A stretch of 61,421 nucleotides of DNA from Chrysochromulina tobinii (lineage: Eukaryota). Of this stretch, positions 1,138 through 47,778 are shown piece after piece. The notes beneath the pieces were generated by a model that did not search any database, had not been told where the DNA came from, and was given only the letters and a program-made list of their open reading frames with translations. Position 1 is the stretch's first letter. The number at the start of each line of letters is the position of its first letter. The stretch covers positions 1 through 61,421 of the forward strand of contig JWZX01002777.1 of assembly GCA_001275005.1 (NCBI GenBank), written 5' to 3'. The position numbers were made by a program, and so were the translations under genes.

Positions 1138-4100
1138 CGCAGCAGCGATTTCGTCCTGTTTGGTGAGCTTGCAATGCATGCACCTGTGATGAGGGAGGCA
1201 ATCAGAGGTCATCGGAGGTTATCAGAAGCAATCAGATCGGCTTCAATTTGGAGCTGGTGCGAATCTCGCCCAAATCTCGCTCAAGCATATCTCGTTCATA
1301 TCTCGTTCATATCTCGTTCATATCTCGTGCATATCTCGCACCCGGCGCACTCCGCCTTGGCGCACGTATACTGATTGCACCACGACTCGCAGGTGGGCGC
1401 CTCCACAGTCACAGTCACCGGCTCAAACGGGCTGTCAATGTTAGACCCCATCTTGAGCAGAGGTACGTCGGCGGGGTTGAGGTCGTACGTCCGAAGGAAG
1501 TCGATGTGGGGGGCGAGGGTATCCGAGCTGCTCGTCACAAAGGCTTCGATTGTGCGTGGCAGATTGACGTCCCACACGTCCCCGCGTACCTGATGAGGGA
1601 GGCGATCCGACTGATGAGGGATGCAATCAGCTTCGATTGTGCGTGGCAGATTGACGTCTAATTGACGTCTAATTGACGTCCCACACGAGGGAGGCAAGGG
1701 TACACTTAAGGAAGGCCCTTTGGAAGGCACTGAAGGAAGGCAATTAGGGAAAGCGATTGGGGGAGGTAAGTCGCGTTCCACACGCCCCCGCGTACCAAAA
1801 ACTCATTGTAGATATTGTTGCGGTGGGCGCCAGCACGACGCTCGTTGGTATCCCTGAGATGAGAGGACACAATCAGAGAGGAGTGAGGTCAGAGACTCGA
1901 ATCAGGGATTCGTCCTCGTGAGATGGGATTCATCCTCGTGAGATGGGATTCATCCTCGTGACGGTCGTCGCGCGCTATGGGATTCGTCAGGTTTCGTCAC
2001 ATAGTCACCTCGCGAGGTAGACCCCAATGCTCGGCACGTCAGATTCTCAATCAGATTCGTCAGATTCTCACCTGGCGAGGTAGACCCCAATGCTCGACAC
2101 GTCCCACGTACAATCGGACGGGAGGGAGCCTGGACCGGTAGGGTCCGCGTCAGGAGGGAGCACTGGGCAGGAGCTGCGACAGTAGCCGCCGCAGTCGCCC
2201 GGGGCTGCGCATTTGATGACGGTGACGCCCGGCCGGAAAATGATCCCGCCCGGGCAACCAAATAAGGAATCGTGGAGCGTTTTGCCGTTAGGGTCGCCAG
2301 TCGGGGCGCGGTTCTGGAGGCTGAAGACCTGATGAGGGAGGCCATCAGGGGGGCAATTAGTAGGCAATTAGTAGGCAATTAGGGAATGCGATTCTATAGG
2401 CACTCTTGCTATTCGGGAGGCTAACAGACCTGCTGAGGGATGGATACGGAATCAGATGTGAGGGATGTAATCACCGGAGGATGCGATTAGGGTGCGTTCA
2501 GCCAGGTGTAAGCGAGGTATGTGTAAGCGAGGTATCAGCGAAGGAATCCGAGGTGCCATCCAAATAAGGAATCCGAGGTGCCATCCAAATAAGGAATACG
2601 AGGTGCCATGAGAGAGAGGGAATGGGGGTGGAGCGGATCCTATGCGGTTCCTCTGAAGCCGCGCACATACATCGCAATCAGATCCAATCAGATCCAATCA
2701 GTGTACAATCAGTGTGCAATCAGTGTCCAATCCGAGATGTCTCCCAATCCACACCCACCATCTCAGTGCCCAATCAGTGTACAATCAGTGTACAATCCGT
2801 GTCCAATCCGAGAGGTCTCCCAATCCACACCCACCATCTCAGTGTCCAATCAGTGTCCAATCAGTGTCCAATCAGTGTCCAATCAGTGTACAATCAGTGT
2901 ACAATCAGTGTACAATCAGTGTACAATCAGTGTACAATCAGTGTCCAATCCGAGATGTAAGAGATGTACATCTCCCAATCCACACCCACCATTGAGGCTG
3001 AGACGAGGCAGCTGCCGTGAGCAATGTCGGAGCAATCGGAGGGTGCAATGAAGGCCCGAGACGTATGGCCGTCGAAGCAGTGCACGAGCACGCCTGATGA
3101 CGCAGGCAATTAGGGAGAGGAGGCACAGAGGAGGCACTCACGGGTGAGGCAATTAGGGACCGATTGGCAAGTAGGGAGGCACTCACGGGGGAGGCCATCA
3201 GGAAACCAATGAGCAATTACCTGCATCTGGCAGGGCGCCCGAGGCCGTCCACTGCTCGTAGGGTGCCCTCTGGTAGCGTCGGTTGATTCGCTCGGCTACG
3301 CTCTGCGGACTCTCCGGGGGCGGTGAGGGGGATGGCAAGGGTGGTGGCGAGGGCAGAGGGGGTGGCGTCGGGCACGGCGGCGGCGGCGGCGGCGGTGAGG
3401 GTCGGGGTGAGGGCGGCGGAGGGGATGGTGGCGGCGAGAAGGAGGGCCAGAGTGGAGGTGGCGGCGACGGCTCCACGGCCACTGCGGCGAGCTGGTGCTC
3501 CGAGTTGGATGCCCCAGCACCAGCACCAAGCCGCCGCACCCCGAGTACGAGCCAAGGCCCGATTAGGAACACGAGGGTGAGCAGACCGAACCCAATCGAC
3601 CTCTTTCGCTCGAGGTGCTGGGGGTCTTTGCTGGAGAGCTTGCTGAAGAAGACTTCCGCAGACGATGCCACGCGATCATACTTCATGTTGGTCCGGGTCC
3701 CCTCTGCATCATCCTCGACGTCGTCGTCCTCGTCGTCGTCCCGCGCTGCAGATCCGCCTTCCTTATTTGGAGCCCATGCAGACCCGCCTTCCTCAACAGC
3801 CCCACCAGCTGCGTCCGAGGCTTCGTCCGCTTCTTGATGCCGCTTCCAGGCACGCCCTACCACGGTGTTCTCGCGCAAATTCGGCGTCAGAACATAATCG
3901 AGGTCCTGCAGGTCCGCAAGTTCGGAGGAGCGCATGAGCTCTGACGTCGCCTCGGGTCTAGCTGACGAACGACCGATCGCGCGCGCGAGCAAGGCACGCT
4001 CGCGCTCGGATAGGTTCGAGCTCTTCAGATGCTCTTGTATGAAGTCTTCGGCCATCGAGAGTCCCTCGCCAAGGGGCGGTGCGCCATCCATTTCGTGCGA

Positions 4101-4151
4101 GAACGGCGGCATGAAGCAAAGTGGCGAACCACCAGCACACGTGTATCTCAT
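1084..4151 (-). CDS. Multi-exon hypothetical membrane protein (TM helix, Pro-rich linker, Cys-containing C-terminal domain)
   Basis: The exon 1 ORF (3198-4169) has a TM segment (IGFGLLTLVFLIGPWLVLGV) and a poly-Pro stretch. Later exons (GVLVHCFDG..., GGIIFRPG...IKC, VWDVNLPRTIEAF) each follow a ...CATCAG acceptor. The last exon 1183-1084 reads CMHCKLTKQDEIAAAIAAANQMLQGAKLQAPG*. Internal exon borders are approximate. Confidence 0.7.
2676..2990. repeat. Intronic 11-nt minisatellite (CAATCAGTGTA/C)n
   Basis: Many tandem copies. On the gene strand each unit contains CTGATTG, the branch-point-like core of the intron cassette. Confidence 0.9.
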
Positions 4152-4486
4152 CTCCGATTGCGGAAGCAATTCAAGTGTGCATGCAACTTGAACTTGGAAC
4201 CGAAATTGATAAAGGGGTCAACGATTAGGTCAACGACATCTCGGCGTTCTCGATTCTTGGTGCTTTCATGCGAATGTATCCACAACACACAGCCGACCGC
4301 CTAAACTCGAGGGCGAGGCGTCTCTTCGTCTTTGAGCGCGCTCTTCAACTAAGAAACTATATCCATATACGGTGGGAGGTCTGGTACCGGTAGCCCTAGT
4401 GACGAAACATCCTTTGGAGATTTACTACCGGCTATATATATTACATATCATCTACTTTCCTAAATCACAGCTAATCTTCTCTCGAA

Positions 4487-7271
4487 CTATCGAAGCTCAT
4501 CATGCATCTCCACCTGAGGAAGCGGGCTCGTGCCTGCTGCATCTCGCGCTGTCTCGAGCGCTGCCGCGCTCTGTCTCCCTCCGATGCGTACCGGCTTCAG
4601 AGTGCCCGTCGCCACCTGTCGGTCATCCGGCGCTGCGGCTGATTGCGGTTGATTGCGTACCGGCTTCAGAGTGCCCGTCGCCACCTGTCGCTCTTCCTGA
4701 GCTGCGGCTGTGGTGGCTGTTGTTACGGTCGCTGCTGCGGCTGCCGCTCCGGCTGCGGATTCGCGCGGCCTCGCTCTCCTCGTGTGATCTCGTGTGATCT
4801 CGTGTGATCTCGCTATCCTCGCAGCTTTGGATGTTGGAGCCTTGATTGGATTTTTGATTGGAGCCTTTGACAACGACAACGACGATGATGATCCGGCCCT
4901 TGCCGCCCTTGATGATGATGATGATGATGATGATGATGACGATGATGATCCGGCCCTTGCCGCCCTTGCCGCTTTGGAGTTTGGAGCCGTCGGGTCGACG
5001 TTCTTCTCGAGCGCCTCGGCTGCCTTCGCGTCGAGTCCGAGGGCCGAGGACGCCATCGCTAAGCGCTCTTGGAGCAATGCCTCGGGCAGGCTGCCAACGC
5101 AATCAACCGCAATCAGACGCAATCAGCCGCCATCGCTAAGCGCTCTTGGAGCAATGCCTCGGGCAAGCTGCCAACGCAATCAGCCGCAATCAGCCGCACT
5201 CAGCCGCAATCAGCCGCACTCAGCCGCAATCAGCCGCACCTGCCGAGGGTGCTTGGATCGAGCTCCTTCAAGCGGGCGAGCGCGGCCAACATCTTCTCCG
5301 ACTCTTGACGAAGCTGCTTGCGACGGCGCTCGAGCGACGCGCGCTTCGCCTCGAACACCTGATTGCTTTGGTCATCAGCACCCGCTCGGTTCGCCGACGC
5401 GCTCGCGCCGTACTGAGCGTTGCTGGCCGCGCTGCCGGTGGCGGCGCGCGCCGTCGCGGGCGGAGCGCCGTCCTGAGCGCAGGCGGCCGCCGGGATGAGA
5501 ACGTCTAACGCCACGTGTTCCATCAGAAGCGCCCCGTCGAACGCGCGTCGCACCTGCATGCAATTCCCGATTCAACCCCAAATCAGGTCTGCATGCAATT
5601 CCCAATTCAACCCCGAATTGCAGACCTCATTGGACAGCTAAGGAAGCCAGCGATCATCAGTGGTCATCAGCATTCATCATCAGCATTCATCAGTGGGCAT
5701 CAGCATTCATCATCAGCATTCATCAGTGGGCATCAGCATTCATCAGTGGTCATCAGCATTCATCAGTGGACAGCTAAGGAAGCCAGCGGTCATCAGCGGT
5801 CATCATCTCACCATATGATCACATGGTGGCAATCAGCATTCATCAGTGGCCATCAGCATTCATCAGCGGTCATCATCTCACCATATGATCACATGGTGGC
5901 CATCAGCGGCACTCCGGCGCAGTCACCGTGATCACGTCGCCCGAGCGCACGCCCGTGACGAGGAGCTGATCGGTCGCGTTTGGGACGAGCGAGCCACGTG
6001 GATGGAGCGTGCCCACGCGGCGCTCGGGACGGCGCGCGCCCCAGACTGCCACGTGGGCAGCGGAGCTGCCGATGAGCTGCACCATGACTGACGAAGCACA
6101 CCGGGGAGGGTGCTCAACATCAGTGCTCATCAGGCGCAATCAGTCGCAATCAGTCGCAATCAGTCGCACCTGACGAAGCACACCGGGGAGGGTGCTCAAC
6201 ATCAGTGCTCATCAGGCGCAATCAGTCGCAATCAGTCGCACCTGACGAAGCGTTCGCGGCATCGACTCCAAAGCTAGCGTGGAGCGAGGTGCGTTGACGA
6301 AATGCGACTTCGTCACTCGCGTTGCACCGGCACGACGCGCGGGCGAACAGCGTGTTCGCGTACCAGTCGAGCAGCAATCTCCCTGAATCTGGCGCCTCAT
6401 GATCCGAGAGCATCTCGCGCGATCTCCAGCGGTGGCCTAGAAAGGAAGGTTGCTGCAGCCGGGCGCCGGGCATCACCACACCGAATGCATGCTCCACACC
6501 GAGTGCATCGACCCATAAAAGGCGCGCGGGCACCTGTGGGGAGAGTGGGGCGCCGTGGTGAGCACTCGCATGCAGACCGAGCCCATCGACCCATAAAAGG
6601 CGCGCGGGCACCTCGGCCTCGTTGATGACGGCGATTGGCGCCGGCGCGTTCGTCAGCTGCGGCAGCGTATGCCATGGTGCTGGCGCCGTCGGGCTGGCGG
6701 CGGCGGCCACAGGCATGCTATCCGCGTCGCATGCATGCTCCGCCAAGCCCGTGCACGCTCTCATGCTGCACGGCCGTTGTCGCGTCGCTTCCTCGCACGC
6801 GGCCGAGCAACTGTGCATCATGAACGCAGCATTCGCCTCGCACTCGCCCACTGCAGCCCACTTGACGCACTCGGACTCGACGGCAGGCGGCGGTGGTGGA
6901 GGCGGTGGAGGCGATCTGGTGCACGCGTCGGCGCAACCTTCAAGCATGAATGCGCTGTTGCGAGTGCACTCACCGGCATTGGCCCACGACTCGCACTGGC
7001 ATGCCGTGGAGCACGACTGGCTCATGAAGTTCCTGTTGTGGGCGCACTCGCCCGCGGCGGCCCAGGCTGCGCACGCGCTCTTCGTGTAAACTGGCAGCGG
7101 CGAAGGCGCAGGCGACGGTGGTGGCGCTGCGTTGGCTGCTTGTGCGCACTCGTCGGCGCAACGCACGCGCATGTAGTCGGGATTGCGGGTGCACTCTCCT
7201 GCGGCTGCCCAGCGGTCGCACTGGGCTGCAACCGATGTGATGGCCACGAGCGTGATCGGCAGCGCTCGCAT
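4487..7271 (-). CDS. Secreted/ER protein with four ShKT-like domains, VHL-beta-like domain, coiled coil and C-terminal HDEL-like signal; multi-exon
   Basis: Signal peptide MRALPITLVAITSVAA, then four C..WA.AGEC..N..(Y/F)M...C...C repeats and VINE...LLWVD..G.E....V.PG...Q.SF.GH.W. Introns at 6611-6534 and 6241-6088 keep the frame. The terminal exon ends EMHDELR*. Confidence 0.75.
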
Positions 7272-15844: not shown

Positions 15845-16939
15845 GCACTTGCATGCAGCGGCGCCGCTACGCATGCTCGGCGCGCTCCGAGACTGGGCCG
15901 CGGCGACGCGGGTCGCGCCGTGGTGAGCACTTGCATGCAGGGCCGCGGCGCGCGCTTTAGGAACACGAACGAGAATCGAGAAGCGCTTGACGAGCCTCGA
16001 TCTCGATGTGTCTCAACAGGCGGTTACGCGCGATGACGGACGCCGCTGTCGGACCCTTGTTCGCTTGGGAGACCAGGCGAGAGAGCAGAGAGAGCAGAGA
16101 GAGCACAGACAGAGCGCTGTGGTGAGCACAGAGAGCGCTCCACTCTATCTACTCGAGGCTGTACGCCATTCACCGCGCCAGTGTGTGCGAATCGTTTATG
16201 AAACGTACCGAAACGGTCGCTTCGATTTTCGTTGAATTGATTTCGTTACGGTACAACTCGTTACTCTTTATTTTACACCGGCGCTACCCACACGTTCGAA
16301 CATATCTCGACTTTTCGCGCCCCCACGACGCGCCACCCTCCCGTCACACTCTCGGCCTGTAGCAAGACCCTTTCGAACGCCGACGATCGCTGCTCTCTCC
16401 TCGCGGATGCCACCGTACTGCAGACATGGATGCAAACTCATGGCAGTCCCTCGTGGCTTTTCTCGTGGCTTTCTAGCGGCGGAGACAGGGCGCCCTCTGC
16501 CCCTGCTATCGCGGCCGTTGAAGAGACGCACGGTGCATCGCCAAAGGGCAGCACGCTGCCCTGCACGATGCAGAACGCGACACTCGGTGCGCGCGGAGCC
16601 TCACCGCGTGAGGTCGCGAATGCTGAGCGGCGGTGGCGCATGCACGGCGGGAAGACACCCCCCCGGAGAGGCAGCGCCGCCGCTCATGGGGGGGAAGGCA
16701 CGCTTCTTGCGGCTGGTCCGAGGGAGGCTCGCAGCTACTTCATGCAGCTACATCTTGCAGCAGCGCCACGTCGAGCTGCCACATCTCCACTTCCAGCAAC
16801 AGACCCTGAGCATAGCGAGCCGGGTGGAGCAGGCGTGAGGGGCAGGGGGGCGCTCAGAGGTGGGAGCACACGAGGGGAGCGCGGGGCGGGGGCCGAGCCG
16901 AGCGGTGCGAAAGGCTGCGGGTTCGAATCCTTCGGGGAG

Positions 16940-19900
16940 CTACCAAAGCAGTTGTTTTCCAAAGTAGTTTTGAATGCAGCAAACCAAGAGAGTATAAACC
17001 AAAGTGCCCGAGCACAGCTGCATGCAATCCATGTCCTTATCGCCCCCCTTCGGATCGCACCCCAGCTGCGGGCACAAGGCCATGTGGAGGCACGCCGGCA
17101 GAAAGTACATCGGCTCCGTGGGCACGCAGCCAAAGATCGCCTCGCCGTCCGCCGAGACGCAGCAGCACGGCGCCAGTGGCTTACAGCAGTCGGCGCAGGG
17201 GCCGCGGAAGTGCTTGTCTACGGAACTCAAGCCCCCCTTTGGATCGCACCCCAGCTGAGGGCACAAGAACATGTGAAGGCCCAACGGCAAGTTGTAGCCG
17301 CGCTCCGTGGGCACGCAGCAAAAGATCGCCTCGCCGTCCGCCGAGACGCAGCAGCACTGCGCCAGTGGCTTGCAGTTGGCGGCGCAGGGGCCGCGGAAAT
17401 GCTTGACTGATACTTCTGCCTGAGCGCGACGCTCCTGTTTAGCGCGAAGTTGCGCGGCGCGACGCTCCTCTTTCGCGCGAACTTCTGCGGCCGCCTGCGC
17501 GGCCGACAGCTCCGCGGCGGTCGCAACGGTGCACTTAAGCGCCGGCTGCGCAGACCACGCAGAGCCCGTCCATGCTTGCCACGTCGCGGAGCTCGCATCC
17601 GGGCTGGCAGTGTCTGCGTCCGTGAGCATCAGAGCGCCCCTCTTCTGACCAAGGTCGGCCTCGGGCTGCCCACGCCAGTCAGCTCCGTCGAATGCAACCC
17701 AGCAGCGTCCGTTTGTGTGCTTCCACGCGGGCCGGCCGTTGACAAGCGTGCCGTCGAGCATGTAGAAGCCCGCGTACTGGGCCGCGGCGCCAGGCAGCGA
17801 GCCGCCCTCGAGCTTGAGTCTAGGCGGCAGAGCCGCCTCCCGCTCCATCAACATCGGCATCACGCCGCGCTTGATCGCCAGTACGTGCGTCTGTTTGGCC
17901 TCGCGCGCGGCCGCCGCCTCGCCCTCCGTCCTTGTCATCACCCCTGCTAGGGGCACCACTTTGGCGTCCGCTCGCGCCTTGGCCTCCTGGCACTCAGCCT
18001 CCGCTCGCGCCTTGGCCTCCTGGCACTCACGCTCGCCCTTCTGGAGCGCGGCCTTTGCACGTTCCACCGCCGCGGCACTCGCTGCAACCCGCTGCAGCAG
18101 CTGCGCATCGATCCTTTGGAACGCGCCTTGCACGGTCACGTTGAGCGCCTTGATCTGGGGCAGCTGCCCTTGCTTGTCGCTTAGGTTGGTTACCGTCACG
18201 TCCGGTTTGGAGAGAAAGTCGAAGGCCTGCTGAGGCGTCTTGTTGGCCCAAGTGTCGACGAGCACCTTTGTGTACAGCTCAGCATGTTCGGCAGCATTCT
18301 GGATGCACACGATGTGGTAGCGCGCGTTTTTCGTGCCAACCGCCGACTTGAGGCCGTTGGGTGTCGCAAACTGCATGCTCAGCCACGCCTCGAACTGCGT
18401 CCAGAAGCGGGACGCGTACGAGAGGTCGTAGAGGATGAGGACGGTCGTGCCCAGGAAGAGCATGTTGACCTGCGCGCAAATGAATGGTGGAAAGCAATGG
18501 CGGGATGTGGGGAAAGGGTGGCGAGGAAAGAGCGGTGTCCGAGGAAAAGTGCGGCGCAGACCTGCGACAGCATGGTCTTGAAATCGGACGTGTCCTCAAC
18601 GCTGCGAATGAGGCCGATGGAAGGCTGGTGCTGTGGCATGGAGCCGCCATCGATCCACACGAGCTCGATCCGCTTGCCAGCCGACGAAACGAGAAAGGCC
18701 TTGATGGCCTTGAGCTGTTCGCCGTCGGGGTCGGGCTGAGCAGTGACCATCCAGCGATGGGAGATGGACAGAATCTTCTCGACATGTGTCCCGCGGACCA
18801 CCTCTTCATAGCTGATGGTCACCTCGACGAACGCACTCGGGTGCTTCGCGCGCAGCTCCTGGAAAAAGGGCAGGTTCTTGCCGGAGAAGGTGCGCAGGAA
18901 GTCCGCCTTGATCATCCAGAACCTACACGAGACAGGGCCTGCTGGCCCTCGAACAGCGCTCGGTGGTGCGGCCTGTGCCAGTGCAGCACTGGGATGTAGA
19001 TCAGGGAGGCTCGGCGTGGGCTTGGAGGCAGCGGCGTTCCTCGTTTCACCCTCGCGCTCCATGACCGTCGCATCCTCGCGCTCCATGACCACGGGGTTGA
19101 CTCCGAACAAGCTCCCCACCTTGTCGCGAGCATGGTCGATGAGCTGCGAAAGCGGGCCGTCGGCCTTTCGCAGATCTTGGTCGAAGCACGTATCTAGCTC
19201 GCCGGAGCCACGCTCTCCGAACTCCACCACGTACGCGCCATTCGCCGCATCGTACGTCGTCACATGGGCGAGCCGCTTCTCTCCGTGGCCTTGATCCACG
19301 TACACGCGGCTGCCGACGGGGAAGCGCGGCCCCCTTGACGGCCCACCGGCGGGTTTGGTGGGCGGAGGCGGTTGCGGCGTGGGCGTGCTCGTGGCAAGGC
19401 TCGCCGGTGCCGGAAGATGTTTCTCGAGCTCCGCCACGATGTCTTCGAGGGCTGTGGCTCTGTTGAGCACCGTGCCGGGGTTGGGGATGTTATTGAGCGA
19501 GTTGAGCTTCTCCTGCACTCGATATTTCCGCATCTCCCAGTCCGGGTCGTCGAGGTTCGTCCACTGCTCCTCTTTGGCAGGCAAATTGTCCTCAAAGCGC
19601 ACCGGTAGGAGAGCGATCTTGTTCTTGATGGCCGTGTCAATCTCCTTCAGGCAGGGCCTTGAGTGGAACAATCCCGCGGTGAGGATGATGATGAGCACCT
19701 TGGGCTTCTCACGCTTCCCGTTCTCGCCAGTCAGGCGCAGCATAAAGGTCTCCCAGTCCACGCCCGGGGGCACTTGCAGCCCGGAGAAGCACTGCAGGCC
19801 GCGCTCGTGGAAGAACTCCATCAGCCCCATGGCGTACATCACGCCGGGTCCGGAGCCTTCGCAGTCGTCTGCAGCGTCTTTGCGATTGGTACGGCGACCC

Positions 19901-20058
19901 GATGCATACGTCACAACAATGGAGGGGTAGAAATCTCTGTACAGGACGCCTTTGGGGAGCTGCATGCGCGCTCGGCGCTTGCATCCCTCCAGCTGCTCGA
20001 TTGTGATTGCGCGCGGCACGACGAAGCGGTCCCCATGCGCCTCGGGGAGCATGTCCAT
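16940..20058 (-). CDS. TIR + SH3/Tudor-like + HET-domain protein with coiled coil and duplicated Cys-rich C-terminus; one intron 18561-18470
   Basis: TIR-like motifs SIVVTYAS, FSGLQVPPGVDW and VLIIILTAGLFHSRPCLKEIDTA. HET-like motifs ILSISHRW...PDPDG.QL, VWID..SMPQ and SRFWTQFE. A GT-AG intron joins MLSQ|VNMLFLG in frame. Confidence 0.8.
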
Positions 20059-20192
20059 GAGTGCCGCCTTGCCGTGGAGAGGTCGCCTCCCACTCACCGC
20101 GGGACCACACTCACACCACAAGTGCGCGTTCGCCCGGACCCAAAACTTCAACTTTCTGGGGGAGGCGACAATTCGGTGCCGGTAGAATCCCA

Positions 20193-20229
20193 CAGTGGCG
20201 CCGGCCCCCATTGGGGGCCGGCGCCATTG
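20193..20229. other. Perfect palindrome/hairpin
   Basis: TGGCGCCGGCCCCCA-T-TGGGGGCCGGCGCCA with 15-bp perfect arms at 20196-20210 and 20212-20226. Confidence 0.9.
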
Positions 20230-20286
20230 GCCCAGGTACTGGCGGAGCTCTCGGTTGCCGACGCGGCCATCCCACCAGCGCGAAGA

Positions 20287-20651
20287 TGGTACTCTCACCG
20301 CCGCTCGCCACTGCCGACCAAACCGTCCTTCAGCACGCCGAGCTGCTCCAAGTGCTCGCCGACGTGCACAAGCGCAACAAGGGCGGGCGCAACGATAAGC
20401 ATGACACAGCACGGGTGCGGTTTATCAAGGACTTCGCGCTGCGTGGGCTGCGCTTCGGAAAGCTTGTGCCGACCGCGGACCTCGACATGATCCGCCTCGA
20501 GCCAAAGGCGGAGCTGAGCGGGCCGAAGCTCGCGTCCATGGACGCGTGGGACAAGCGGCATCCTCCTGATCCACGCTCGGCGAGTGAGGTCGTTGCAATC
20601 GACCTGACAGTGGAGCAGCTGGCGACGCTAGGTTTCCAAGAACGCGGCTGA
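20287..20651 (+). CDS. Small hypothetical ORF (~120 aa), possibly a mobile-element fragment
   Basis: MVLSPPLATADQTVLQHAELL...LATLGFQERG* has normal globular composition, but no family is recognised. Confidence 0.35.
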
Positions 20652-20719: not shown

Positions 20720-20771
20720 GTTACTCGACACCGTCGTCGTCATGCGACGACGGTGTCGAGTGACTTCTTTT
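20720..20771 (+). other. Long hairpin followed by T-rich tract
   Basis: ACTCGACACCGTCGTCG-TCATG-CGACGACGGTGTCGAGT forms a 17-bp perfect stem, followed by GACTTCTTTT. Confidence 0.9.
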
Positions 20772-23015: not shown

Positions 23016-24506
23016 TCAACTCAGAGACCACCTGACGTATGCAGAGGTGCCGAAGGTTCGTAGGGGATTTCGCATCTGTAATGCCGTCCTCAGTGTGCCG
23101 ATGAACGCATCAAACGTTCGGCGGCTCTGCACAGGAACGACAACCACTACGGCGCCGCACGGGCGGCCGCCAAACGGCGGAGCGCTCTTGCGATGCGGCT
23201 GGCCAACAGGCGTCGCCGGACGGCACACGCCTGTCGGTCCATGCACCTCGCCATGCGGAAAGATCGTCTTGTAGCGCGCGCCTGGGAGGCTGAGAGCGAG
23301 CGCGTGCTGGACGGCCATCTCGACCTCGTCTCGGTATTTGCCGCGCACGACGGAGGGCTCAGTCGAGTTCGAACCAGATGGCCAGCTGCAGCTCGATCTC
23401 CCGGCCTCGAGATCGGCCGACCTTGGCGCCAGGGCGGCGCCGTGGTGGGCACCCGACGGGTATCGCTTCTCGAGGAGCAGCCTCTTCATCACATCCTCAC
23501 AGACGAAGGCTCGCGCAGAGACCCTCGACATCAGGGCGATCTTGTCTTCGGTTCTGTTCTCGTCGTGAGCTGCCATCAGCGCCAGAAGCTGCTGCGCAGC
23601 CGGCAAGACCCTCGTGTAGCATGCAGCAGCAAAGCAACGGGCGTTCTCGGGACAGCATGCTAGCGGCATGGCCGCCGGGAAGCGGCGGACGTTGAGCCCA
23701 GCGGCGTTGAGCAAGGCTTTCAAGAAGGGCTCGCTCTGCACCAGGCCACGATCGGCCACCTTGCCGCCCCTCAACTGCCGATCGATGCGCATCACGTCGC
23801 CACTGACGATGGCTTCCCAACGGCCAAAGTAGACTTTGGCGGCGTCGCGCGCGAGCACGGCGTGCCGATCATTGTACCCTCCGTAGTAGTCCTCGCCGTT
23901 CGGAATCCACACGTAGCGAGGGTCGAACATCTCGAGCGGCGGGTGCGGCCTCAGCCACACGGCCTCCAGGCGCGAGTGCACCAGCCATTCATACGGTCGG
24001 TTACGTTGCGTCTCTTGTGGCCCGATAAGGTCGCTCAGGCATCGTTGAAATCCCACGAACTCGTGCAGGCTCGACGTGGTGCCGAGCACAGGCGAGAATA
24101 TCGTATTGCCCATGTACAAGCCGGTGCAATCGTACCGAGGCCCATCAGCGATAGTGACGTTACGCACACAGCGCTTGCCGAAGGCATGCACGATGGCTGG
24201 CCAGTGCGGAAGTGCCTCCATGGCGGCCACAAGTTCCGGGGTCGACGGCAGGCGAAAGACGGAGACCCGATTAAAGGGTTTCAGCCCATGTAGCCGCTCC
24301 CCAATACGGCATGAGCTCTCGCTATCGCAGTTGTCACTTGCGAGGTAGCCGAGGGCCAAGTGCACATCCGCACCTATGGCATCGACCAACTCACGGCGTA
24401 TGCTCGCACCGCCGTCTGCTACCTCCCGACCGAGCCAGCCAGATAAGCACACGGCTGCGGCTGCTGGTCCGAGTGCGCTGCTCGGTGACCGAGCTTTCTT
24501 GGGCAT
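23016..24506 (-). CDS. Hypothetical glycosyltransferase-like protein
   Basis: 496-aa ORF with AVCLSG, YEWLVHSRLE..W..PHPPL and VWIPNGEDYYGGYNDRHAV motifs, typical of an algal GT-A-like family. Confidence 0.7.
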   Translation of the reverse strand: MPKKARSPSSALGPAAAAVCLSGWLGREVADGGASIRRELVDAIGADVHLALGYLASDNCDSESSCRIGERLHGLKPFNRVSVFRLPSTPELVAAMEALPHWPAIVHAFGKRCVRNVTIADGPRYDCTGLYMGNTIFSPVLGTTSSLHEFVGFQRCLSDLIGPQETQRNRPYEWLVHSRLEAVWLRPHPPLEMFDPRYVWIPNGEDYYGGYNDRHAVLARDAAKVYFGRWEAIVSGDVMRIDRQLRGGKVADRGLVQSEPFLKALLNAAGLNVRRFPAAMPLACCPENARCFAAACYTRVLPAAQQLLALMAAHDENRTEDKIALMSRVSARAFVCEDVMKRLLLEKRYPSGAHHGAALAPRSADLEAGRSSCSWPSGSNSTEPSVVRGKYRDEVEMAVQHALALSLPGARYKTIFPHGEVHGPTGVCRPATPVGQPHRKSAPPFGGRPCGAVVVVVPVQSRRTFDAFIGTLRTALQMRNPLRTFGTSAYVRWSLS

Positions 24507-24681
24507 ATGGAGGGGGCCGTCGCCGCATGCCGAGAGCTTCTGTATTGACGAAAACGCGTGCGAGTTTCACGAGGACAGGACTGTGAATAAATAGCTCCGC
24601 GTGCGGTTATTCATGCCGAAGGCGCCTTGAGTTCACGCGTTTTTGTCGTACATGTACGTCGAGGAGCATCTTCAACATACG

Positions 24682-25269
24682 ATGGCGGACCAGACCGGTG
24701 ACAGACAGCCCATCTCTCCACAGGGGCGTGAGCTTCAGGCTGTGCGGGAAAGTATAAAGCTGGCTCACCTCAAAAAAGCGTCTTTGGATCAGCGTCTTTG
24801 GACTTACCTTCGTGGCAAAATGGCCACGGCCGGCACTGCTGAGGAGGCTGCCGCACCGCTCACGAGTCTGAGTCCGAAACTTACGAGCGGCGGTAGCGGC
24901 AGCGACGATGATTGGATGGTCATCAGCTCCGGGAGCAGCAGCAGTGTTCAGACAGCGCCGCGAAGTGAGGGAGTTAGGGAAGATGCCTCTCTCACCGGAT
25001 CCGATGACGATGAGCTCGAGCAGGAGCAGATCCGTGCCGATGACAATGACGATGACGGTCTCGTGCTCGAGGAGAATGATAGCGAAGGCGAGGACGGTCT
25101 GTGCCTCGAGGACAACCCAAATGAGGAGGACGCAGCTCTCGAGGACAATCTCACGTCCGATGGCGACGACGGCCTCTGCTTGGAGGAGAACGAGGACGAG
25201 GATGAGGGCAGTGTCGGTCCTCTGAGCTCAATCATGCCGCCGACGAGCGCGGTAAGGGGAAAATTTTAA
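24682..25269 (+). CDS. Acidic low-complexity hypothetical protein
   Basis: ORF with repeated DGL(V/C)LE(E/D)N acidic motifs. Confidence 0.6.
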   Translation: MADQTGDRQPISPQGRELQAVRESIKLAHLKKASLDQRLWTYLRGKMATAGTAEEAAAPLTSLSPKLTSGGSGSDDDWMVISSGSSSSVQTAPRSEGVREDASLTGSDDDELEQEQIRADDNDDDGLVLEENDSEGEDGLCLEDNPNEEDAALEDNLTSDGDDGLCLEENEDEDEGSVGPLSSIMPPTSAVRGKF

Positions 25270-25337
25270 GTTTCATGAGCTCTGTGCGCTTGTACGCCTA
25301 CTGCTGAACACCGTGCACCGATCTGCGATCACACCAC

Positions 25338-26942
25338 TTACGTCAGTAATCTTACGTCACTTGAGTCCTCACGAGGTCGCTTCGATGCGGCCATAGCGGA
25401 GCAGTCTTCCTGGAGCAAGGCGAGCGCCCCTGAGAAGCGCCCAATGTCGTCCTGGAGCGCCCACGTACCATGCGCACACGACGGCGCGAGTCGCGACCCT
25501 TTGGGGGTCAGTCCGGCATGGAAGAAGGCGCCTTCATGGCACACGTCGTAGGAGCGCTCGCGCGTGACGACGTTGGCCAGCCGGGCTGCGGCCGCGAGGG
25601 CAGCGCGCACGCTTGCCGAGGCGTTGATGAAGCCCGTGAGGATGGGCGTGAGCTTGCCGTCCTTCCACGCGTAATGCACGCCAGTCCCTTGAGGGCAGCA
25701 GCGCCATGGCGAGGATTCCAAATCCCATCGAATACATACGCGACCATCCGTGCGCCTTTCGAAGCCGTGCGGATCCTCGATCACCTGGCGCACGTCCGCA
25801 AGCCAGCGCGTCGCGTTCTGCACTAGCAGCGGCGGCCGGCCTGGCCGCGTGAGCGGTTGCTTCGCGCAGCGCCACACCTTGCCTTCATGCCAGTAATGGT
25901 CGAAGGGTACCCATGTGAGCCACTGCGCCTTATAATCGAATTGGGCGGCCATGTGAAAGAGGATGGCGTAGCTGGGTCGGTGGCGCAGCGTCTCACGCAG
26001 TAGTACGCGCTCCTCCCAGCCGCTTTGCCGTTGCTCGCCCGCGCCAGTCTTGAAGCCAAGCTCAAGATGGTTTGGTACCACCGTGTAGAGCGCCCGGCTC
26101 GGCGCGTCGTTACGCAAAATGGAGAGCTGGCCGGCCCATGCGAAACCGAGGGTCGCCCCCGGGAACGTGAGCGCGTCATATTCCCACAGCGATCTCTCGG
26201 GCACAACGGCGCTTAAGTCGCCGAGCAGCAGATCCCAATCCGCCCATCCCCAGTGCGTGTACGTGCGCTCGTCGAGCAGCTCCTCGAAGACGTGCCCATA
26301 AAAGGGCTTGAGATCGCTCAGGCCCTTGGCGCTCGCAAACTTGGCCTCCACCCGTGCGGGCGTCGCGCCCAGCTTCTGCACGAAGCGCGCCTGCAGCGCC
26401 GAGAGAGGCACGTACTCATAGCGCACGTTACGACCCTTGCTAGGCAAGCCGCTGTCCTCGGCGGAGAGCGCGCTGGTGTGCACCACGATGAGCGTGTAGG
26501 TTGGTGCGTTGCGCTCGTACGACGCCACGAGGAACGGCCACCAAGAAGGGAAGCGCGAGCCCACGACTAGCATGATGAGTGCAACGCGTGCCGGTCGCGC
26601 GGTGGTGGTGGCAGCAGGAGCGGCCGTCGCCACAGCGATGGGTGGATCCGCCGTGCGGGGAGCTTCAGTCGCCGTGAATGCTGCTGCAGGCATCGGCGTC
26701 GTGTGAGCGGTTGTCGTCGCGGCGAGTGTCAATGCGCTCACCGCGCCCACAGGTCGTGGCAGTTGTCCCGTCAGGACTTGAATGCTCGGCGTCGAGGCCT
26801 TGGCCAGCAGCAACAAAAGGACGCTTGCTCCGAGCAGAGTGATGAAGGTACTCATGCGCAGCGTTCCGCTTCGTGGCTTTGCCTCGTCGGACAGGCGCGT
26901 GTCGCCCGATTGTGCGGCCTCGCGGTGCTGCCGTGCGCGCAT
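25338..26942 (-). CDS. DUF6625-like type II membrane glycosyltransferase
   Basis: N-terminal TM helix. DLKPFYGHVF...YTHWGWADWDLLLGDL matches the DUF6625-type DxD region as recalled. Confidence 0.7.
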   Translation of the reverse strand: MRARQHREAAQSGDTRLSDEAKPRSGTLRMSTFITLLGASVLLLLLAKASTPSIQVLTGQLPRPVGAVSALTLAATTTAHTTPMPAAAFTATEAPRTADPPIAVATAAPAATTTARPARVALIMLVVGSRFPSWWPFLVASYERNAPTYTLIVVHTSALSAEDSGLPSKGRNVRYEYVPLSALQARFVQKLGATPARVEAKFASAKGLSDLKPFYGHVFEELLDERTYTHWGWADWDLLLGDLSAVVPERSLWEYDALTFPGATLGFAWAGQLSILRNDAPSRALYTVVPNHLELGFKTGAGEQRQSGWEERVLLRETLRHRPSYAILFHMAAQFDYKAQWLTWVPFDHYWHEGKVWRCAKQPLTRPGRPPLLVQNATRWLADVRQVIEDPHGFERRTDGRVCIRWDLESSPWRCCPQGTGVHYAWKDGKLTPILTGFINASASVRAALAAAARLANVVTRERSYDVCHEGAFFHAGLTPKGSRLAPSCAHGTWALQDDIGRFSGALALLQEDCSAMAASKRPREDSSDVRLLT

Positions 26943-27039
26943 TGGTGTACTGTGAACAACGGTTCAAATTTTAGAAGCTGTTTGTGTTGTCAAGTTTGTA
27001 TGAACGTGTAGGTGTGTCGTACCTTTGATTTCCTTTTTC

Positions 27040-29511
27040 ATGAAAGGTAAGCGCGCGAAGCGTCGCTGGATGACCACGGGCGAGAGGAAAGATGAAAAAA
27101 CAAGAATGCCCGGGCAAGTGATGCGTAAATCGCCTGGCGGCCCGTACGAAGCGACTCCGGACGGCAAACGCTTCAAGGTGTTGGAGGCGTTCTCCGGACG
27201 GCAAAGATTACTAGGAGATGACCCCCATTCGGTCGAGTGGAGCCCAGGCGGGTACAAACGACAAGCACCGACACGCACGGGAACTGCCAGTGGAACTCGC
27301 AGCTCTGGGGATCACTTGTCGCTCTCAGTTCAGCATTTCTGCCAAGCTCTGTCGTCGGCCGTGTGCGGGCCTTCGGAACCATCAGATCCTGACGAGGACC
27401 AGGCAGCGGAGGTGAAACGCGCGCGCACGGACGGCATCTTCCTGCCCACGGACAAATGGAAGGAGTCGTGGGACCTTATCGTGCTGAACTTGATCATCTA
27501 CTCGGCGGTCATGGTGCCGTACAGGATCTGCTTCAACGCGCCTGCAACAGGATGGCTCGATAAGTTCGAGATTTCCCTGTCCCTACTCTTCTTCGTCGAC
27601 GTCATCTTCAATTTCAATACCGCTTACGCTGAGGGAGATAAGTGGGTCGTCGACCGTCCTTCGATCGCCTTGCGCTACCTGCAGGGATGGTTCTGGATCG
27701 ATTTTCCATCGTGTATACCTGTAGGATTAATCGACTCACTCTTCGCGGGCGAGCAGGATGAGCTGGGCATGCTTCGCTTCTTGCGCCTCTTTCGGCTTCT
27801 CCGCCTGCTCAAGCTGCTTCGGCTCGCCACCATCGTCGCTGAGCTCGAGGACCGCTTCGATCTCAACCTTTGCTTCTTGCGGATCATGCAGATGCTCCTC
27901 GCGCTCATCTTCCTGGCGCATATCTTAGCGTGCTTCTGGTTCTACATGGCGACCATTGTCGGCATAGATCCCGATATCGTCACGTGGGTCAGCACGTACA
28001 AGGATGGGTACCTCCTCGAGGAGCCGCCGGAAGCGCAGTACCTCGCCTCCATGTATTGGGCACTGACCACACTGACCACGGTCGGCTACGGCGACATCGT
28101 CGCCACGAACGATGTCGAGCGCAGCTATGCCGTGTTTGCACTGCTCATGGGCGCGCTTGTCTTCGGCTACATGATCTCATCGATCGCGTCGCTCGTCAAG
28201 GCGCTCGATCGGCAAGGCGGCCTAACGGAAGAGCGGATGGACGAGATCAAGGAGTACATGCGCTGGCGCAAGCTGCCTCGTGAGCTGATGGTCCGAATGC
28301 GCAAGTACTATGAGAACTACTACGACACGTGCACGGCCTTTGACGAGCATGCCATCCTCGGCAATCTTACGCCGTCGATGCGACTGGAGGTTGTCGAGCA
28401 CATCCTAAAGGATACGATTGGCAAGATCCCGCTGTTCGCGAGGACGCTCGATCGCCAGATGCAGGTCGATATCTTCGCGCTGTGCAAGCCGCTTTTCGCG
28501 GTGGCAAAAGATATCATCTACACGCGCGGCGACCTGCCGCTCGGCCTGTACATCCTCATGAAGGGGCAAGCGGAGGCAGTATCTTCCATGGACGGTCGGT
28601 CCCTCTACCGAGTCAGCCACTTAAAATTCTTTGGCACCTCCGTGCTCACAGGGCGGCGCTATTCCGCGACGCATCGCGCGATCACGCCGTGCGAGATGGC
28701 GACCATCGCCGCGGACGATCTCCGGAAGCTCTTCCACAGCTTCTCGGTCGAGGGTAAGGTGCTCTACCAGTCACTTTTGCGCTCTCATCAGCAGAAGGAG
28801 ACTGTGCGCCGCGTGCAGATGCGCATGTACGTCATCGTGAGTTTGGCAGAATACGACGGGACGCTGGTGGAGTTGGAGGCCAAGAAAAACATCTACGCGT
28901 TGCGTTTGCAGCTTGCTTGGGAGAGGAAGTTTGAGTCCGCCTCGTTACAGCTTATGCCTGGCTTTACGGGATCTCTTGTCTCTATGTTAGAGAAGAAGAG
29001 AGGCCGCGTTGTGGCCCCGCTGGTCGAGGAAAGCAAAACAATTGCTAAGCTGGAGATCCCAGCTCTTGGCGCGACGTTGCCAAAGGCGGATGCATCGACT
29101 ACGCGTCTGGATGACCTGCATTCGGACATGCAGGGTCTGCAACGCGACATGAGGGTGCTGATCGAGCATGTCGCCAGCCTGAGTGCAAAGGTGATCGAGG
29201 CCGATCTTCGCACTCAGACCACTGACCTGCTCCTCGCCCAGGGCGGGGATCATGGCTCCACGGTGGCGCTTGAGCCGATGCCAACGTCGGCAACGGCCTG
29301 CATGTCACCATGGCCCATGGGGGCCACGTGCTGCGGCCAGGCATTGCCTACCGAAGGCTCGTTGAATACCGAGGTACGAGCTGCCGAGTCGTCGATGCCC
29401 TCGCTCCATTCACCAAGGTGCACCTCGCCACGGATGTATATGGCGCGGGTCGCACAGGAGCGTGCGGGGGCGGGGGCGGGCCCGACCCCAAACCGCTCTG
29501 CGCGAGGATGA
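27040..29511 (+). CDS. Voltage-gated K+ channel of the CNBD (EAG/HCN/CNG-like) superfamily
   Basis: Six TM segments, S4 LRFLRLFRLLRLLKLLR, pore TTLTTVGYGD, C-linker and cyclic-nucleotide-binding-like domain. Intronless. Confidence 0.95.
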   Translation: MKGKRAKRRWMTTGERKDEKTRMPGQVMRKSPGGPYEATPDGKRFKVLEAFSGRQRLLGDDPHSVEWSPGGYKRQAPTRTGTASGTRSSGDHLSLSVQHFCQALSSAVCGPSEPSDPDEDQAAEVKRARTDGIFLPTDKWKESWDLIVLNLIIYSAVMVPYRICFNAPATGWLDKFEISLSLLFFVDVIFNFNTAYAEGDKWVVDRPSIALRYLQGWFWIDFPSCIPVGLIDSLFAGEQDELGMLRFLRLFRLLRLLKLLRLATIVAELEDRFDLNLCFLRIMQMLLALIFLAHILACFWFYMATIVGIDPDIVTWVSTYKDGYLLEEPPEAQYLASMYWALTTLTTVGYGDIVATNDVERSYAVFALLMGALVFGYMISSIASLVKALDRQGGLTEERMDEIKEYMRWRKLPRELMVRMRKYYENYYDTCTAFDEHAILGNLTPSMRLEVVEHILKDTIGKIPLFARTLDRQMQVDIFALCKPLFAVAKDIIYTRGDLPLGLYILMKGQAEAVSSMDGRSLYRVSHLKFFGTSVLTGRRYSATHRAITPCEMATIAADDLRKLFHSFSVEGKVLYQSLLRSHQQKETVRRVQMRMYVIVSLAEYDGTLVELEAKKNIYALRLQLAWERKFESASLQLMPGFTGSLVSMLEKKRGRVVAPLVEESKTIAKLEIPALGATLPKADASTTRLDDLHSDMQGLQRDMRVLIEHVASLSAKVIEADLRTQTTDLLLAQGGDHGSTVALEPMPTSATACMSPWPMGATCCGQALPTEGSLNTEVRAAESSMPSLHSPRCTSPRMYMARVAQERAGAGAGPTPNRSARG

Positions 29512-29921
29512 GGTGCATCAACTCCATACCTCTACAATAACCCTACAAGAACAGCTGGAGCGTGAAGACAGGAGGCACTGCGCGTCGATGGGGAGTAGTG
29601 ATAGCAGACAATGCGCGTCGATCGGGGAATGCCACGTGGACACCCCGATGGCGATGCACGGATAGGGCATGTGGGGCGTGGACAGATGTATAGATTTCGC
29701 GGTGTCCCGGTGACTGCGCCCCGGCGTGCAGCCGCACGTCGGTCCGTCTCCTGCCGGGAACGACGAAGTCGAGATCGCGTCGGAAGATAGACACCTCCGA
29801 TTGGATGTGGGGCGAGTTGGGGCGACTTTCAAAGCTTCTAACGCATTATCTGTCGAGTTTTGGGTGTGTGTCTCGTTACGTTCGACGGTATCACAACCAT
29901 ATATGTTATATCGATTCTTTC

Positions 29922-31734
29922 TTACCCCCGTGGGAGTGGAGAGGCGGCAGCGTCAATCGGCTGCCCGTTGGCGCCCGCCGCGACCGGCGCCGGCGCCGCC
30001 AACTGTTCGATCCGGTTGATGAGCTTCGCGAGGGCCTCGGCCTGCGCGTGGTGCATCTCGCGCAGCGCTTGCATATCGGCGGCCACGCGCTGCTCGAGTG
30101 CGTCCATCCGGCGCACCATCGTCGACATCGTCCCCGGGTCCGACAGGGATTCCAAATTGAGGAGGCGTCGCTGCTCGCGCTGCCGCTGCACGCGGTGCAG
30201 CAGCATGAGGCGCACATGGCGCGTATTGAGCGCTGTGGTGGACGCCGCAAGCGCTGACGAGGCAGTGCGCCGCATCACGCGGCGACCCCGGAATGACGGA
30301 GCGGCGGGCGCCGTCGCGGGCGCCGTCGCGGGCGCCGTCGCGGGCGCCGTCGTGGGTGCGTCGCCCGAGGTCAGGCAAAGGTCACCGACGAGAGGTGGCA
30401 CACGCTCCACACTCAGCGCTCGACGCGTCAAGGCGCCTCGCACGCGCCACACTTGCTGCACGAGTAGGGCGGCGGCCTCCATCTCGACCTTCTCGAGCTC
30501 GTTGTCGAGGACGCGTCGTAGTAAGGTCGTTTCGAAGTTGCTCAGTGAGAGACTGTCAGTGACCACCATCGACGTCAGTGCGAGCAGCACGATGCCGCAC
30601 ACGCATGCGAAGGAAGACACCACACGCCCAATCGGATCGTTCGGCGTGTAGTCGCCGTAGCCGACGGTGGTCATCGTGCCAATCATGAACCTGATGAGGG
30701 AGGCGATCAGGGAGGCGATCAGCGGGCACGTCCCAAACTCATCAGTGCGACGAAACGCATCAGTGCGACGAAACTCATCAGTGCGACGAAACGCATCAGT
30801 GCGACGAAACTCATCAGTGCGACGAAACTCATCAGTGCGACGGGTCGGAGCATGCGAGCACGAACCATGCCGAGTTGCCGATCTTGCTGAATTCAGGGTT
30901 GCAGTCGCGCTCGATCACGTGGACCCAATACGTGAGCGTCAGGTATGCATAGAAGAACATAACGCAGATGAACTTGAGAGAGTGCCTCGCGTACACGAGC
31001 CGAACGGTCGTACCCCAAGTGAGAAACGGCAGACCGGCCTCACGTCGCAGCATCTCTCGATACTGAAAAATGGTGCTAAAGTCGCGCACGATGCGCAGCG
31101 CCAGGTACGGCAGGCGCAGGTTGATCGCAAACGCGAGCTGCTCGTACCAGAGCGCCGAGACCCACGGTACAGGCTGCACCGCCAGCAAGATCGCCTCGAT
31201 TAGGAAGACCTTGAGCGTGGGACCTCGCCACAAAGACGGCGGGCGCATGGCGACCTGGCTCCCGGGCTGCGCGCGGTACACGTGCGCCAGAGGGTCGCGC
31301 GGCACGAGCGACACGCTGCAGTATGCCTTGTACTTGACATCGTAGTACGAGTACAGGACCAGCCACAAGAGCACCGTTAATCCAAAGTTGACGAAGCACA
31401 GCGGCCGCGTGTACGTTTGATTGAAGGTGACGCCGGGATCGCACTCCAACGGGTCGACCGCAATGCCATCCTTCGTGTAGTTAGTCGGTATCTCCTCGAA
31501 ACTGAGCTCGAGCGAGGTGTACGCGAGTGCGAGCTGTAGCGCCGAAAGAGCAAACAGCGCCAGGTTGCGGCGCCGGAGCGGCTTCTCAAAGCGGGCCGCA
31601 TTGGCAATCGACTCGAACTTCCGAGGATGGCGCGGGTAATCACCCACAAAGGAGGTCCCAGCATCGAGCAACGGCGCTTCCAGGAAGCCCTGCATTGCTT
31701 TCCACGTCCAGACCCTAGAGCCAAGAAACAACAA
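29922..31734 (-). CDS. K+ channel, SK/KCNN-like; intron 30865-30691; start uncertain
   Basis: TM helices. Splicing joins NSAW|FMIGTMTTVGYGDYTP..PIGR. An IQ-like AALLVQQVWR motif and a C-terminal coiled coil follow. Confidence 0.85.
30736..30842. repeat. Intronic 18-nt tandem repeat x6
   Basis: Tandem units of (T/G)CATCAGTGCGACGAAAC. Confidence 0.9.
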
Positions 31735-32055
31735 GCTCCGAGTCGACCCAATCGGTGCTTTGCGGACGGGTCCTCCGATGTGAACGTGAACAGGCGCGTA
31801 TCGTGATGCGGCTTCGCCCCTCGCCAGGAGGAAGTTCTAGCCGCCCGATGGTCACCCCCTCCTTGGGAACTGCGCGCGGTCCAAAATAAGACAAAAGACA
31901 ACTCTCCTCTCTCGTAGCGCTCCGCCCCGCTCCCGCGTCCCGGCTCCCGCGGTCCAACATTGTGGTATTACTGTAGTACAGAGTACTCGCTCCCGCCGGG
32001 CTAATCAACGCGGCTATTTTTCTCTCTAACTCTATCTCTAGCAGGTGCCTACACC

Positions 32056-35000: not shown

Positions 35001-36542
35001 GGCGACCCAAACTCGTGAGCACTACACAAGACGCGCGTGCGGTGCGGCCACTTGGAGGGCGGCGTATGCTCACCTGATGAGGGTGGCCATCAAGGGTGAT
35101 CAAGGGTGATCAAGGTTAATAAGTGTTAATCAAGGTTAATCAAAGGTTAATCAGTGTGTGTGCACATAGCGGTGCAGCAGCTCGTGAAAGGTTCGTCAAA
35201 CCAGAGAAATCAAGGGTACTCAATGGTAATCAATGGTACTCGAAGGTAATCAAGGGAACTCGATGGTCATCAAGGGAACTCGATGCTCACAGCGGTGCAG
35301 CAGCTGGTGCAGGTTCGTCAAGCTTCGCGAGAATTGGGTCCGCGTGCGATTGACGAACACGACGCGCAGCACGGGCGGTCCCGTGGAGGCAGGCTGTGGA
35401 AGGCGGGCTGTGGAAGGCAGGCTGTGGAAGGCGGGCTGTGAAGGCGAGCTGTGGAAGGCGGGCGCCGCCGCGGGCGCGGGCTCGCCGAGCGCCGTTGCCA
35501 CCGGAACCAACGGGCCGTTGGCTGTGAAGGCCCGTTGGCTGTGAAGGCGGGCTGTGGAAGGCGGGCTCGCCGTTGCCACCGGAACGGGCCGCCCGCCTTC
35601 CACAGCCCGAGCGACGCGTTGGCCTGCTCGCCACGGCGCCATTGGCGGCCCGTATGGGTCAAAGGTGGATCTGAAGTTACACACGAGCACGCGCTCGTAG
35701 CAGGTAGAAGCACAGGGCTGCTCTAATGGACGCCGGCGCCGGCGTGCACCGCCCTCCGAGTCGCGGCGGCGTCGGGTGCGTTTCTCACCCATCTCGTCGA
35801 GCCTCCGGCGAGCGGCAGCGTCGTCGCGGGCACTGGGTAGGCGGCTCTCACCCATCTTGTCGAGCCTCCGGCGAGCGGCAGCGTCGTCGCGGGCACTGGG
35901 AAGGCGGCTCTCACCCATCTCCTCGAGCCCCCGGCGAGCGGCAGCGTCGTCGCGGGCACTGGGAAGGCGGCTCTCACCCATCTCGTCGAGCCTCCGGCGA
36001 GCGGCAGCGTCGTCGCATTTCGGAGCGACCTCGCGAACGGTACGAATGGGCTGCGTGCTCAGGCTGCCGATCATACGATAGATCGGATTCTTGGAACGCG
36101 GCCATGCGACCAGGTCCGGGCGCAGCTGCACGTGCTCGTTGATCAAGCCCGCCGACAGTAACTCATCGATCGGCACCAGCGACGACACGAATGAGTCGGC
36201 GAAGCTGAACGCCCATACCGGTATCCAGACGAGAGGCACGCATCGCGACAGCTGCTCCGCCTGGCGCAATAGGAGCGAGGCCGCAGTGGATCCGGTCGCG
36301 GGTGGCCGCATCGGATGAAGCTGCGCGAGCGGAAACGTGGCGTGCGAGCCAAACTGCGAGCGCACGATCATCGAGGTTGCGATGCGCAACGCTGCATTCG
36401 CGTCCGGACCAGGTTCGTACGGCAGGATCGTGCCGTTGAAGAAGCATAGACGCCGAAGCACCTCGCAGCGGTGACGATGCCGAGACGAATTCACCAGCCC
36501 GGCGACATCAATCGCGGCGGCGGCGCACGATGAGTCGGCCAT
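32056..36542 (-). CDS. Fused glycosyltransferase: GT61 (DUF563) domain + exostosin GT47 domain; multi-exon
   Basis: GT61 motifs RVVFVNR and ADVLVGTHGAGLANAFFM..GASLVEVRPY. GT47 motifs VYVYELP, LLNSPHRSSNPELADFYYLP, WPYFN and FCLAPYG.G.GW.GR..SAVRQGCIP. Exons join in frame across introns 34876-34667, 34471-34252, 33843-33740 and 33648-33499. Confidence 0.8.
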
Positions 36543-47771: not shown

Positions 47772-47778
47772 TTGCGTA

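Follow-up and report, generated by a model that had tools for sequence, protein, structure and literature searches.

Enzymatic TIR domains (plant RPS4, RPP1 and ROQ1; SARM1; bacterial SpbK, ThsB and Cat1) and fungal HET domains (PF06985; HET-E, TOL and BH) are among the described systems closest to a gene that we analyzed in the haptophyte Chrysochromulina tobinii. The gene lies on the minus strand around positions 16940..20058 of contig JWZX01002777.1 (assembly GCA_001275005.1), in a stretch of 61,421 nucleotides that was analyzed as a whole ("the window"). The window is eukaryotic nuclear DNA with a GC content of about 62%. Named protein relatives of the gene come from Chrysochromulina parva and C. 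tobinii (identity up to 92%), which agrees with the algal host proposed in an earlier reading of the letters (the sequence-only reading). On balance, we favor a membrane-tethered cytosolic defense effector that would cluster on a ligand and use one or both of two predicted TIR-fold domains to cleave NAD+ or a related nucleotide, as one arrangement of a reshuffled family.

According to the available text of PMC9153377, TIR NADases require the Glu and the proximity of two TIRs. The TIR domain of the window protein shares with the enzymatic TIRs its predicted fold, the Glu on helix C and a plant-like C-x-x-E motif. It differs from them in having no NB-ARC/LRR, SAM or STING partner, in a long insertion after the first strand, and in a second TIR-fold domain in the same chain; its activity is predicted. 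The paired plant TIRs of RRS1/RPS4 likewise bring two unlike TIR-fold domains into one system (4c6t is among the structure matches). Those TIRs are on two proteins, one of them without a role for the Glu, whereas the window gene has both predicted TIR-fold domains in one chain, each keeping its Glu.

HET homologues in Haptophyceae and a relation between HET and TIR were reported in 2014 (PMC4986451, available part), and other TIR-like fungal effectors have been described (PMC9815663, available part). How HET domains kill is stated to be unknown in the accessible text of PMC10890737, and that of PMC12881547 gives no biochemistry or structure for them. The HET-like domain described here shares with fungal HET the weak Pfam match of its relatives, but it is internal and not N-terminal, has no NACHT beside it, and carries an extra conserved C-terminal block.

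In Gephyrocapsa huxleyi, 15 TIR genes change in infection by Emiliania huxleyi virus (EhV) or in recovery, and the authors state that no TIR antiviral system has been described in microalgae (PMC12489294, available text and supplement, also for what follows). That set has haptophyte TIR/HET-type domains with the Glu and no nucleotide-binding site or leucine-rich repeat (LRR), as here. Five supplement rows that respond to infection or recovery are annotated as HET (clusters 2, 2, 3, 3 and 4) and none is in the down-regulated cluster 1, for which chance suffices; one gene is labeled both HET and TIR_2. Four rows have SH-W / W-D-C-Q / RLWCV-E blocks that by eye are like the HET-like domain. In contrast to the window protein, the G. 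huxleyi proteins are mostly transmembrane receptors or TIR-only, two such domains occur in 0/13 of the Table S9 rows examined, and the window TIR subfamily was unrecognized among the TIR genes of that source. A giant-virus TIR-nuclease was reported in a 2026 preprint (10.64898/2026.10.11.758280, available part), and the accessible part of another preprint (10.64898/2026.09.21.753143) does not mention HET domains. Our literature search, which covered papers open without subscription, found none on a chain with TIR and HET or on this gene family.

TIR and HET-like domains

The two domains that carry the proposed function, with module boundaries from local hidden Markov models (HMMs), are as follows.

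19411..19932, minus strand: TIR domain (local HMM)
19642..19644, minus strand: Glu139, putative catalytic residue of the TIR domain, 3 residues past an invariant Cys
18152..18930, minus strand: HET-like domain, split by intron 1; predicted TIR/deoxyribosyltransferase-type fold
18389..18391, minus strand: Glu526, putative catalytic residue in the RFWTQFE motif

For both domains a TIR-type fold is predicted, and in each the helix that follows the third strand bears an invariant Glu. The sequence-only reading had placed a TIR-like domain with its Glu in a CLKEI motif, and both were recovered at 19932-19411. The domain matches Pfam TIR_2 (PF13676) at 26.5 bits (E 9.5e-6), against a curated cut-off of 28 bits, and close paralogues score 28-33.5 bits. 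Glu and Cys of the C-x-x-E motif are each present in 42/42 covering rows. The structure model is the five-strand flavodoxin-like beta/alpha fold that defines TIR domains, and Glu139 sits on helix 134-145 after the third strand, at the helix C position of enzymatic TIR NADases. The model matches structures of the NAD-cleaving TIRs RPS4, RPP1, ROQ1 and Cat1; matches to an integrase and to NanR were dismissed (root-mean-square deviation >17 Å). No NACHT or NB-ARC ATPase, as found in NLR/STAND proteins, was detected in either half of the protein at E up to 1. PADLOC gave a match at a useful level in 0/7 proteins, and its sole weak match (ThsB, E 0.012) was in P0162.

For the HET-like domain, the top 15 VIA rows of the fold search were nine TIR/SEFIR chains, five named deoxyribosyltransferases and one unnamed protein. 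Likeness to nucleoside 2'-deoxyribosyltransferases is one of predicted fold (5-10% identity), and the HET-like domain differs from them in its multidomain eukaryotic context. Glu526 is on the helix after the third strand in the structure model, and its position is Glu in 169/169 covering rows. The HET-like domain is under purifying selection, with ratios of nonsynonymous to synonymous substitution rates (dN/dS) of 0.27 and 0.31. Its C-terminal block is conserved (invariant R, D, T-N and D-K), and 11/267 HET-like entries bear two catalytic motifs.

The position given for this domain by the sequence-only reading held and a TIR-type fold is predicted, but Pfam HET (PF06985) was not reached: there was no match at threshold in either half or in the spliced paralogues P0040 and P0048, and 0/84 relatives matched at E up to 0.001. 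In a relaxed scan (E up to 10), Pfam HET was the commonest weak family (11/107 proteins, best 7.5e-4). An Emiliania relative (65% identical) is named 'Heterokaryon incompa...' in UniRef, and the Atlas model of an ascomycete TPR/ankyrin protein has a template modeling (TM) score of 0.60 to the domain. There are three motif blocks ending in R-x-W-T-x-x-E, with what we take to be the spacing of fungal HET. The name "HET-like" therefore appears valid for a remote relation only. A profile comparison (A4-A3, probability 98) was dismissed because P0058 contributes its HET-like part to A3, and trimming the domains lowered the value to 0.2. No useful match among solved structures was obtained by sequence search with exon 1, the HET-like profile, the barrel or the beta domain.

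Gene structure and transcription

The exons and introns of the gene are listed below.

18562..20058, minus strand: exon 1 (aa 1-499; 499 codons), an open frame whose ATG is kept in paralogues
18470..18561, minus strand: intron 1, 92 nt, GT..AG, 73% pyrimidine
16940..18469, minus strand (to 16944 if intron 2 is spliced): exon 2
16806..16943, minus strand: probable intron 2, 138 nt, GT..AG, 67% pyrimidine
16748..16805, minus strand: probable exon 3, 18 more Cys/Trp-rich residues and a stop

Exons 1 and 2 joined by coordinates encode 1008 aa with no internal stop. RNA evidence consists of contigs from runs without known infection. Contigs that skip intron 1 occur in 4/5 RNA runs and in 0/2 DNA runs (X1 and X2). 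The joint was found at 90% likeness in X11, X12 and X14, where the contigs may stem from paralogues, at 98% in X13, where the short side is only 22 letters, and not in X16. X11 and X13 also contain unspliced contigs with 0 differences, which are less deeply covered (2.9 and 3.4). The two halves share one spliced frame, in line with the single transcript of the sequence-only reading. RNA contigs of X11 fill 30/30 bins of 18400-19500 (98% likeness), a contig of X16 at 18896-19022 (2 differences) joins the linker to the HET-like domain, and the linker itself is covered at 18958-19164 with 0 differences in X11 and X13. No single contig of the RNA runs examined covers the span from TIR to HET-like domain. 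At the 5' end, contig cover reaches bin 19967-20087 and is zero at 20088-20300 in 3/3 RNA runs, despite a DNA depth of 887-1008 there, which makes this stretch a silent control. Assemblies L031 and L032 match the window at 100% over 3400 nt and are possibly from the same culture.

The intron 1 site was compared in 18 loci: an intron is present in 12 (94-136 nt elsewhere), absent in three and undetermined in three. The contrast separates L004, L006 and L017 from L001, L007, L013 and others. Copies without intron 1 are fused to a helicase-like region in P0068-P0070.

The gene start at 20058 given by the sequence-only reading stands, but the gene probably ends beyond 16940 through the second intron (16943-16806), which is predicted for this copy. 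Splicing would delete the stop, extend the protein by 18 residues and end it at 16748. The acceptor at 16806 is used in RNA-only joints of X14, which come from paralogue tails, and gene model P0048 contains the junction. RNA contigs also cover the intron, so unspliced sequence is present. The exon 3-like frame is comparable in L001/L002, L007/L009 and L013; in L027/L028 and the first copy of L001 it is shifted. When intron 2 was tested for frame in L001, the first Cys copy did not continue into the second.

Gene family and domain shuffling

Paralogue counts derive from database matches only. Local HMMs distinguished 16 module orders in 48 entries with a TIR, and 13 of these entries have a HET-like domain as well; the 48 include the window protein twice and near-duplicates, and the query favored TIR/HET-like fusions. 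Elsewhere, the TIR subfamily is joined to PARP, AIG1 GTPase, ankyrin, Hint, FHA, zinc-ribbon and decapeptide repeats. Partners of the HET-like domain include GBP and Roc GTPases, PARP, ART, WD40, ankyrin, SAM, SPRY, kinase and HEAT, as well as LRR with a trypsin-like domain. Domain partners across the family are supported as typical of conflict systems. This family is freely shuffled, and the window architecture is one of its arrangements. Two TIR-fold effectors in one chain had been called unusual; the predicted folds and the invariant Glu residues uphold the pairing, but it is not singular.

P0162 and P0191 fuse the HET-like domain with another TIR subfamily. In a rapidly built tree with 146 HET-like rows, nine changes are needed to explain the 10 rows fused to a TIR, and starred branches force at least seven of these. 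Monophyly of the seven full-length fused rows against 28 of the 136 others was rejected in an approximately unbiased (AU) test that left out the partial rows P0004, P0005 and P0008 (p-AU 3.7e-72). Because the tree forces these changes and the constrained grouping is rejected, the pairing appears to have some seven origins, which include either order and two TIR subfamilies. Fused rows show no extra clustering on the tree (82/500 label shuffles were as low). Cluster sizes are one member for P0026 and P0191, four for P0162, five for P0019 and three for P0058. Both Glu residues are intact in every TIR/HET-like fused copy that covers them.

A near-identical paralogue, L013/L014, lacks the TIR; at 3480-6770 it is a 5'-truncated copy with three beta domains. 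Other layouts among L009, L007, L060 and L048 are a tandem pair, a convergent pair, and three HET-like domains with a barrel. P0292 combines a C-type lectin with a HET-like domain; a virus-induced gene of G. huxleyi in the available Table S2 of PMC12489294 has this domain pair too.

Linkers and C-terminal tail

The remaining modules of the protein are the following.

19933..20058, minus strand: conserved 42-aa N-terminal extension that precedes the TIR in most full-length paralogues; low model confidence
19159..19332, minus strand: Tudor/SH3-like barrel (local HMM)
18931..19158, minus strand: short helix plus Pro/Ala linker; a 'VMER' motif occurs twice (19086 and 19062)
17830..18150, minus strand: Ala/Glu/Lys-rich probable coiled coil (sequence composition), with a third 'MER' motif (17848) at its end
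17519..17827, minus strand: unnamed beta-rich domain of about 105 aa, a candidate sensor
17231..17407, minus strand: Cys-rich repeat 1
17042..17215, minus strand: Cys-rich repeat 2, DNA 86% identical to repeat 1; after it comes a moderately hydrophobic tail that contains Cys

The barrel, coiled coil, beta-rich domain and two Cys-rich repeats are all where the sequence-only reading had put them. The barrel has the Tudor/SH3-like form of the Tudor (Royal) family; it contains no Trp, and no sequence alignment to a Tudor was obtained that would show an aromatic cage for methyl-lysine or methyl-arginine. The 'MER' motif occurs 41 times in 37/67 family proteins, whereas 50 shuffles gave a mean of 3.5; many copies are inherited. 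It is flanked by 13 different module pairs, and its stricter pattern is never within a defined module. We hypothesize that the motif may be a recombination joint.

The beta-rich domain is present in 1-6 tandem copies in paralogues, and its dN/dS is 0.68. A Pfam scan placed 0/7 copies of this domain and 0/8 copies of the Cys-rich repeats in a family; both have a predicted local distance difference test score (pLDDT) of <50 in our own model. Atlas models (TM 0.74-0.92) show the beta domain in small stand-alone proteins and also within TSP1, EGF, LDL-receptor and EF-hand proteins, which suggests that it is a binding module. Four viral matches were dismissed as short motifs in phage tail-type proteins (at most 15.6 bits); an Atlas row naming Nucleocytoviricota draws on two members with known phylum. 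The last 175 aa hold 28/39 Cys residues, with a best 19-residue hydropathy of 1.53. We infer that the tail may be anchored to the membrane by lipidation.

Predicted function and alternative explanations

In the favored effector mechanism, attachment to a membrane would be through the Cys-rich tail, by lipidation or metal binding. Once the variable beta domain or Tudor barrel met a ligand, chains would cluster through the coiled coil. Clustering would bring TIR domains into proximity and allow NAD+ cleavage, either depleting NAD+ or making a signal. The HET-like domain may be a second Glu-dependent N-glycosidase activated by the same clustering. Candidate triggers are a virus, a bacterium, a parasite or a non-self cell. 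The antiviral role put forward in the sequence-only reading was not borne out: no tie of this gene to viruses was found, and the idea borrows G. huxleyi expression data (PMC12489294, available part). Pattern scans of viral contigs and prokaryote genomes, which detect close relatives only, found no TIR or HET-like relatives.

The pairing may instead be a transient, unselected product of frequent shuffling in an expanding family, with modules keeping their own roles. The 16 module orders, the scatter of fused rows on the tree, the loss of the TIR in L013/L014 and the shared linker motif at many module borders would all fit. Recurrence of the pairing and retention of both Glu residues in all fused copies covering them may count against it. 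We regard this explanation as rather unlikely.

Slightly more doubtful still is a role outside immunity and cell death, as a signaling scaffold or a non-NAD N-glycosidase of ordinary stress or membrane signaling. Conflict systems are the better fit for the rapid turnover of paralogues, the repeat-domain partners and the fusions to PARP, ART and GBP, and characterized HET domains kill cells (PMC12881547, available part). An assembly or annotation artefact of two adjacent paralogues is very improbable: the family is multi-copy and the TIR-to-HET-like stretch is in no single RNA contig, but a single stop-free exon encodes the TIR plus the first HET-like half, the sequence is identical in two other assemblies, diverged fusions exist in P0004 (90%) and P0005 (85%), and the X11 contigs leave no gap at 18400-19500.

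Surroundings of the gene

At the start of probable intron 2 (16945-16907), the plus strand resembles a tRNA 3' end (T-loop and CCA end); L007/L009 have tandem B-box-like copies in its place. Near the gene, ARAGORN found no tRNA and Rfam no family at threshold. A 3' segment of about 620 nt (16946-16320) is 85-95% common to paralogues ending in the Cys repeat; its border is sharp at 16946, with the variable coding tail just ahead of it. Upstream DNA at 20088-20300 is multi-copy, its depth comparing with about 45 for single-copy pieces in one DNA run, and strong palindromes form hairpins at 20195-20226 and 20722-20761. This multi-copy, RNA-silent, palindromic DNA is possibly a mobile element. L031 departs from the window sequence beyond 21319.

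Neighboring genes are unrelated (ion channel, methyltransferases, DUF6625 and DUF7796; a family was found in 5/10 open reading frames scanned). At 27004-31836, a cyclic-nucleotide-binding cation channel gene (plus strand) and a probable two-exon potassium channel gene (minus strand) lie tail to tail. A probable Golgi-type enzyme cluster (DUF7796, DUF6625, FkbM and lysine methyltransferase-like) occupies 23016-26963, 35250-41448 and 46626-47972.

Implications

The effector reading of the window gene is a plausible prediction. The shuffled family with its unnamed HET-like domain is a more interesting object than the single gene. The gene places beside a conventional TIR a confidently modeled HET-like domain whose Glu is invariant and whose family comprises thousands of clusters. 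If activity is confirmed, NAD-based immunity would extend to a bloom-forming algal group, with an immune repertoire built by domain shuffling without an NLR switch. More speculatively, and we think this improbable as a whole, haptophytes may assemble an immune repertoire combinatorially and without an ATPase, in that modules for effectors (TIR, HET-like, PARP and GTPase) recombine with sensor or anchor modules at shared short linkers. The TIR/HET-like pairing would then have been repeatedly selected since unlike folds cooperate, through a shared active site or as signal maker and executioner. If such cooperation were true, this algal family of HET-like domains would constitute a new class of TIR-fold N-glycosidases, with the first biochemical handle on HET domains.
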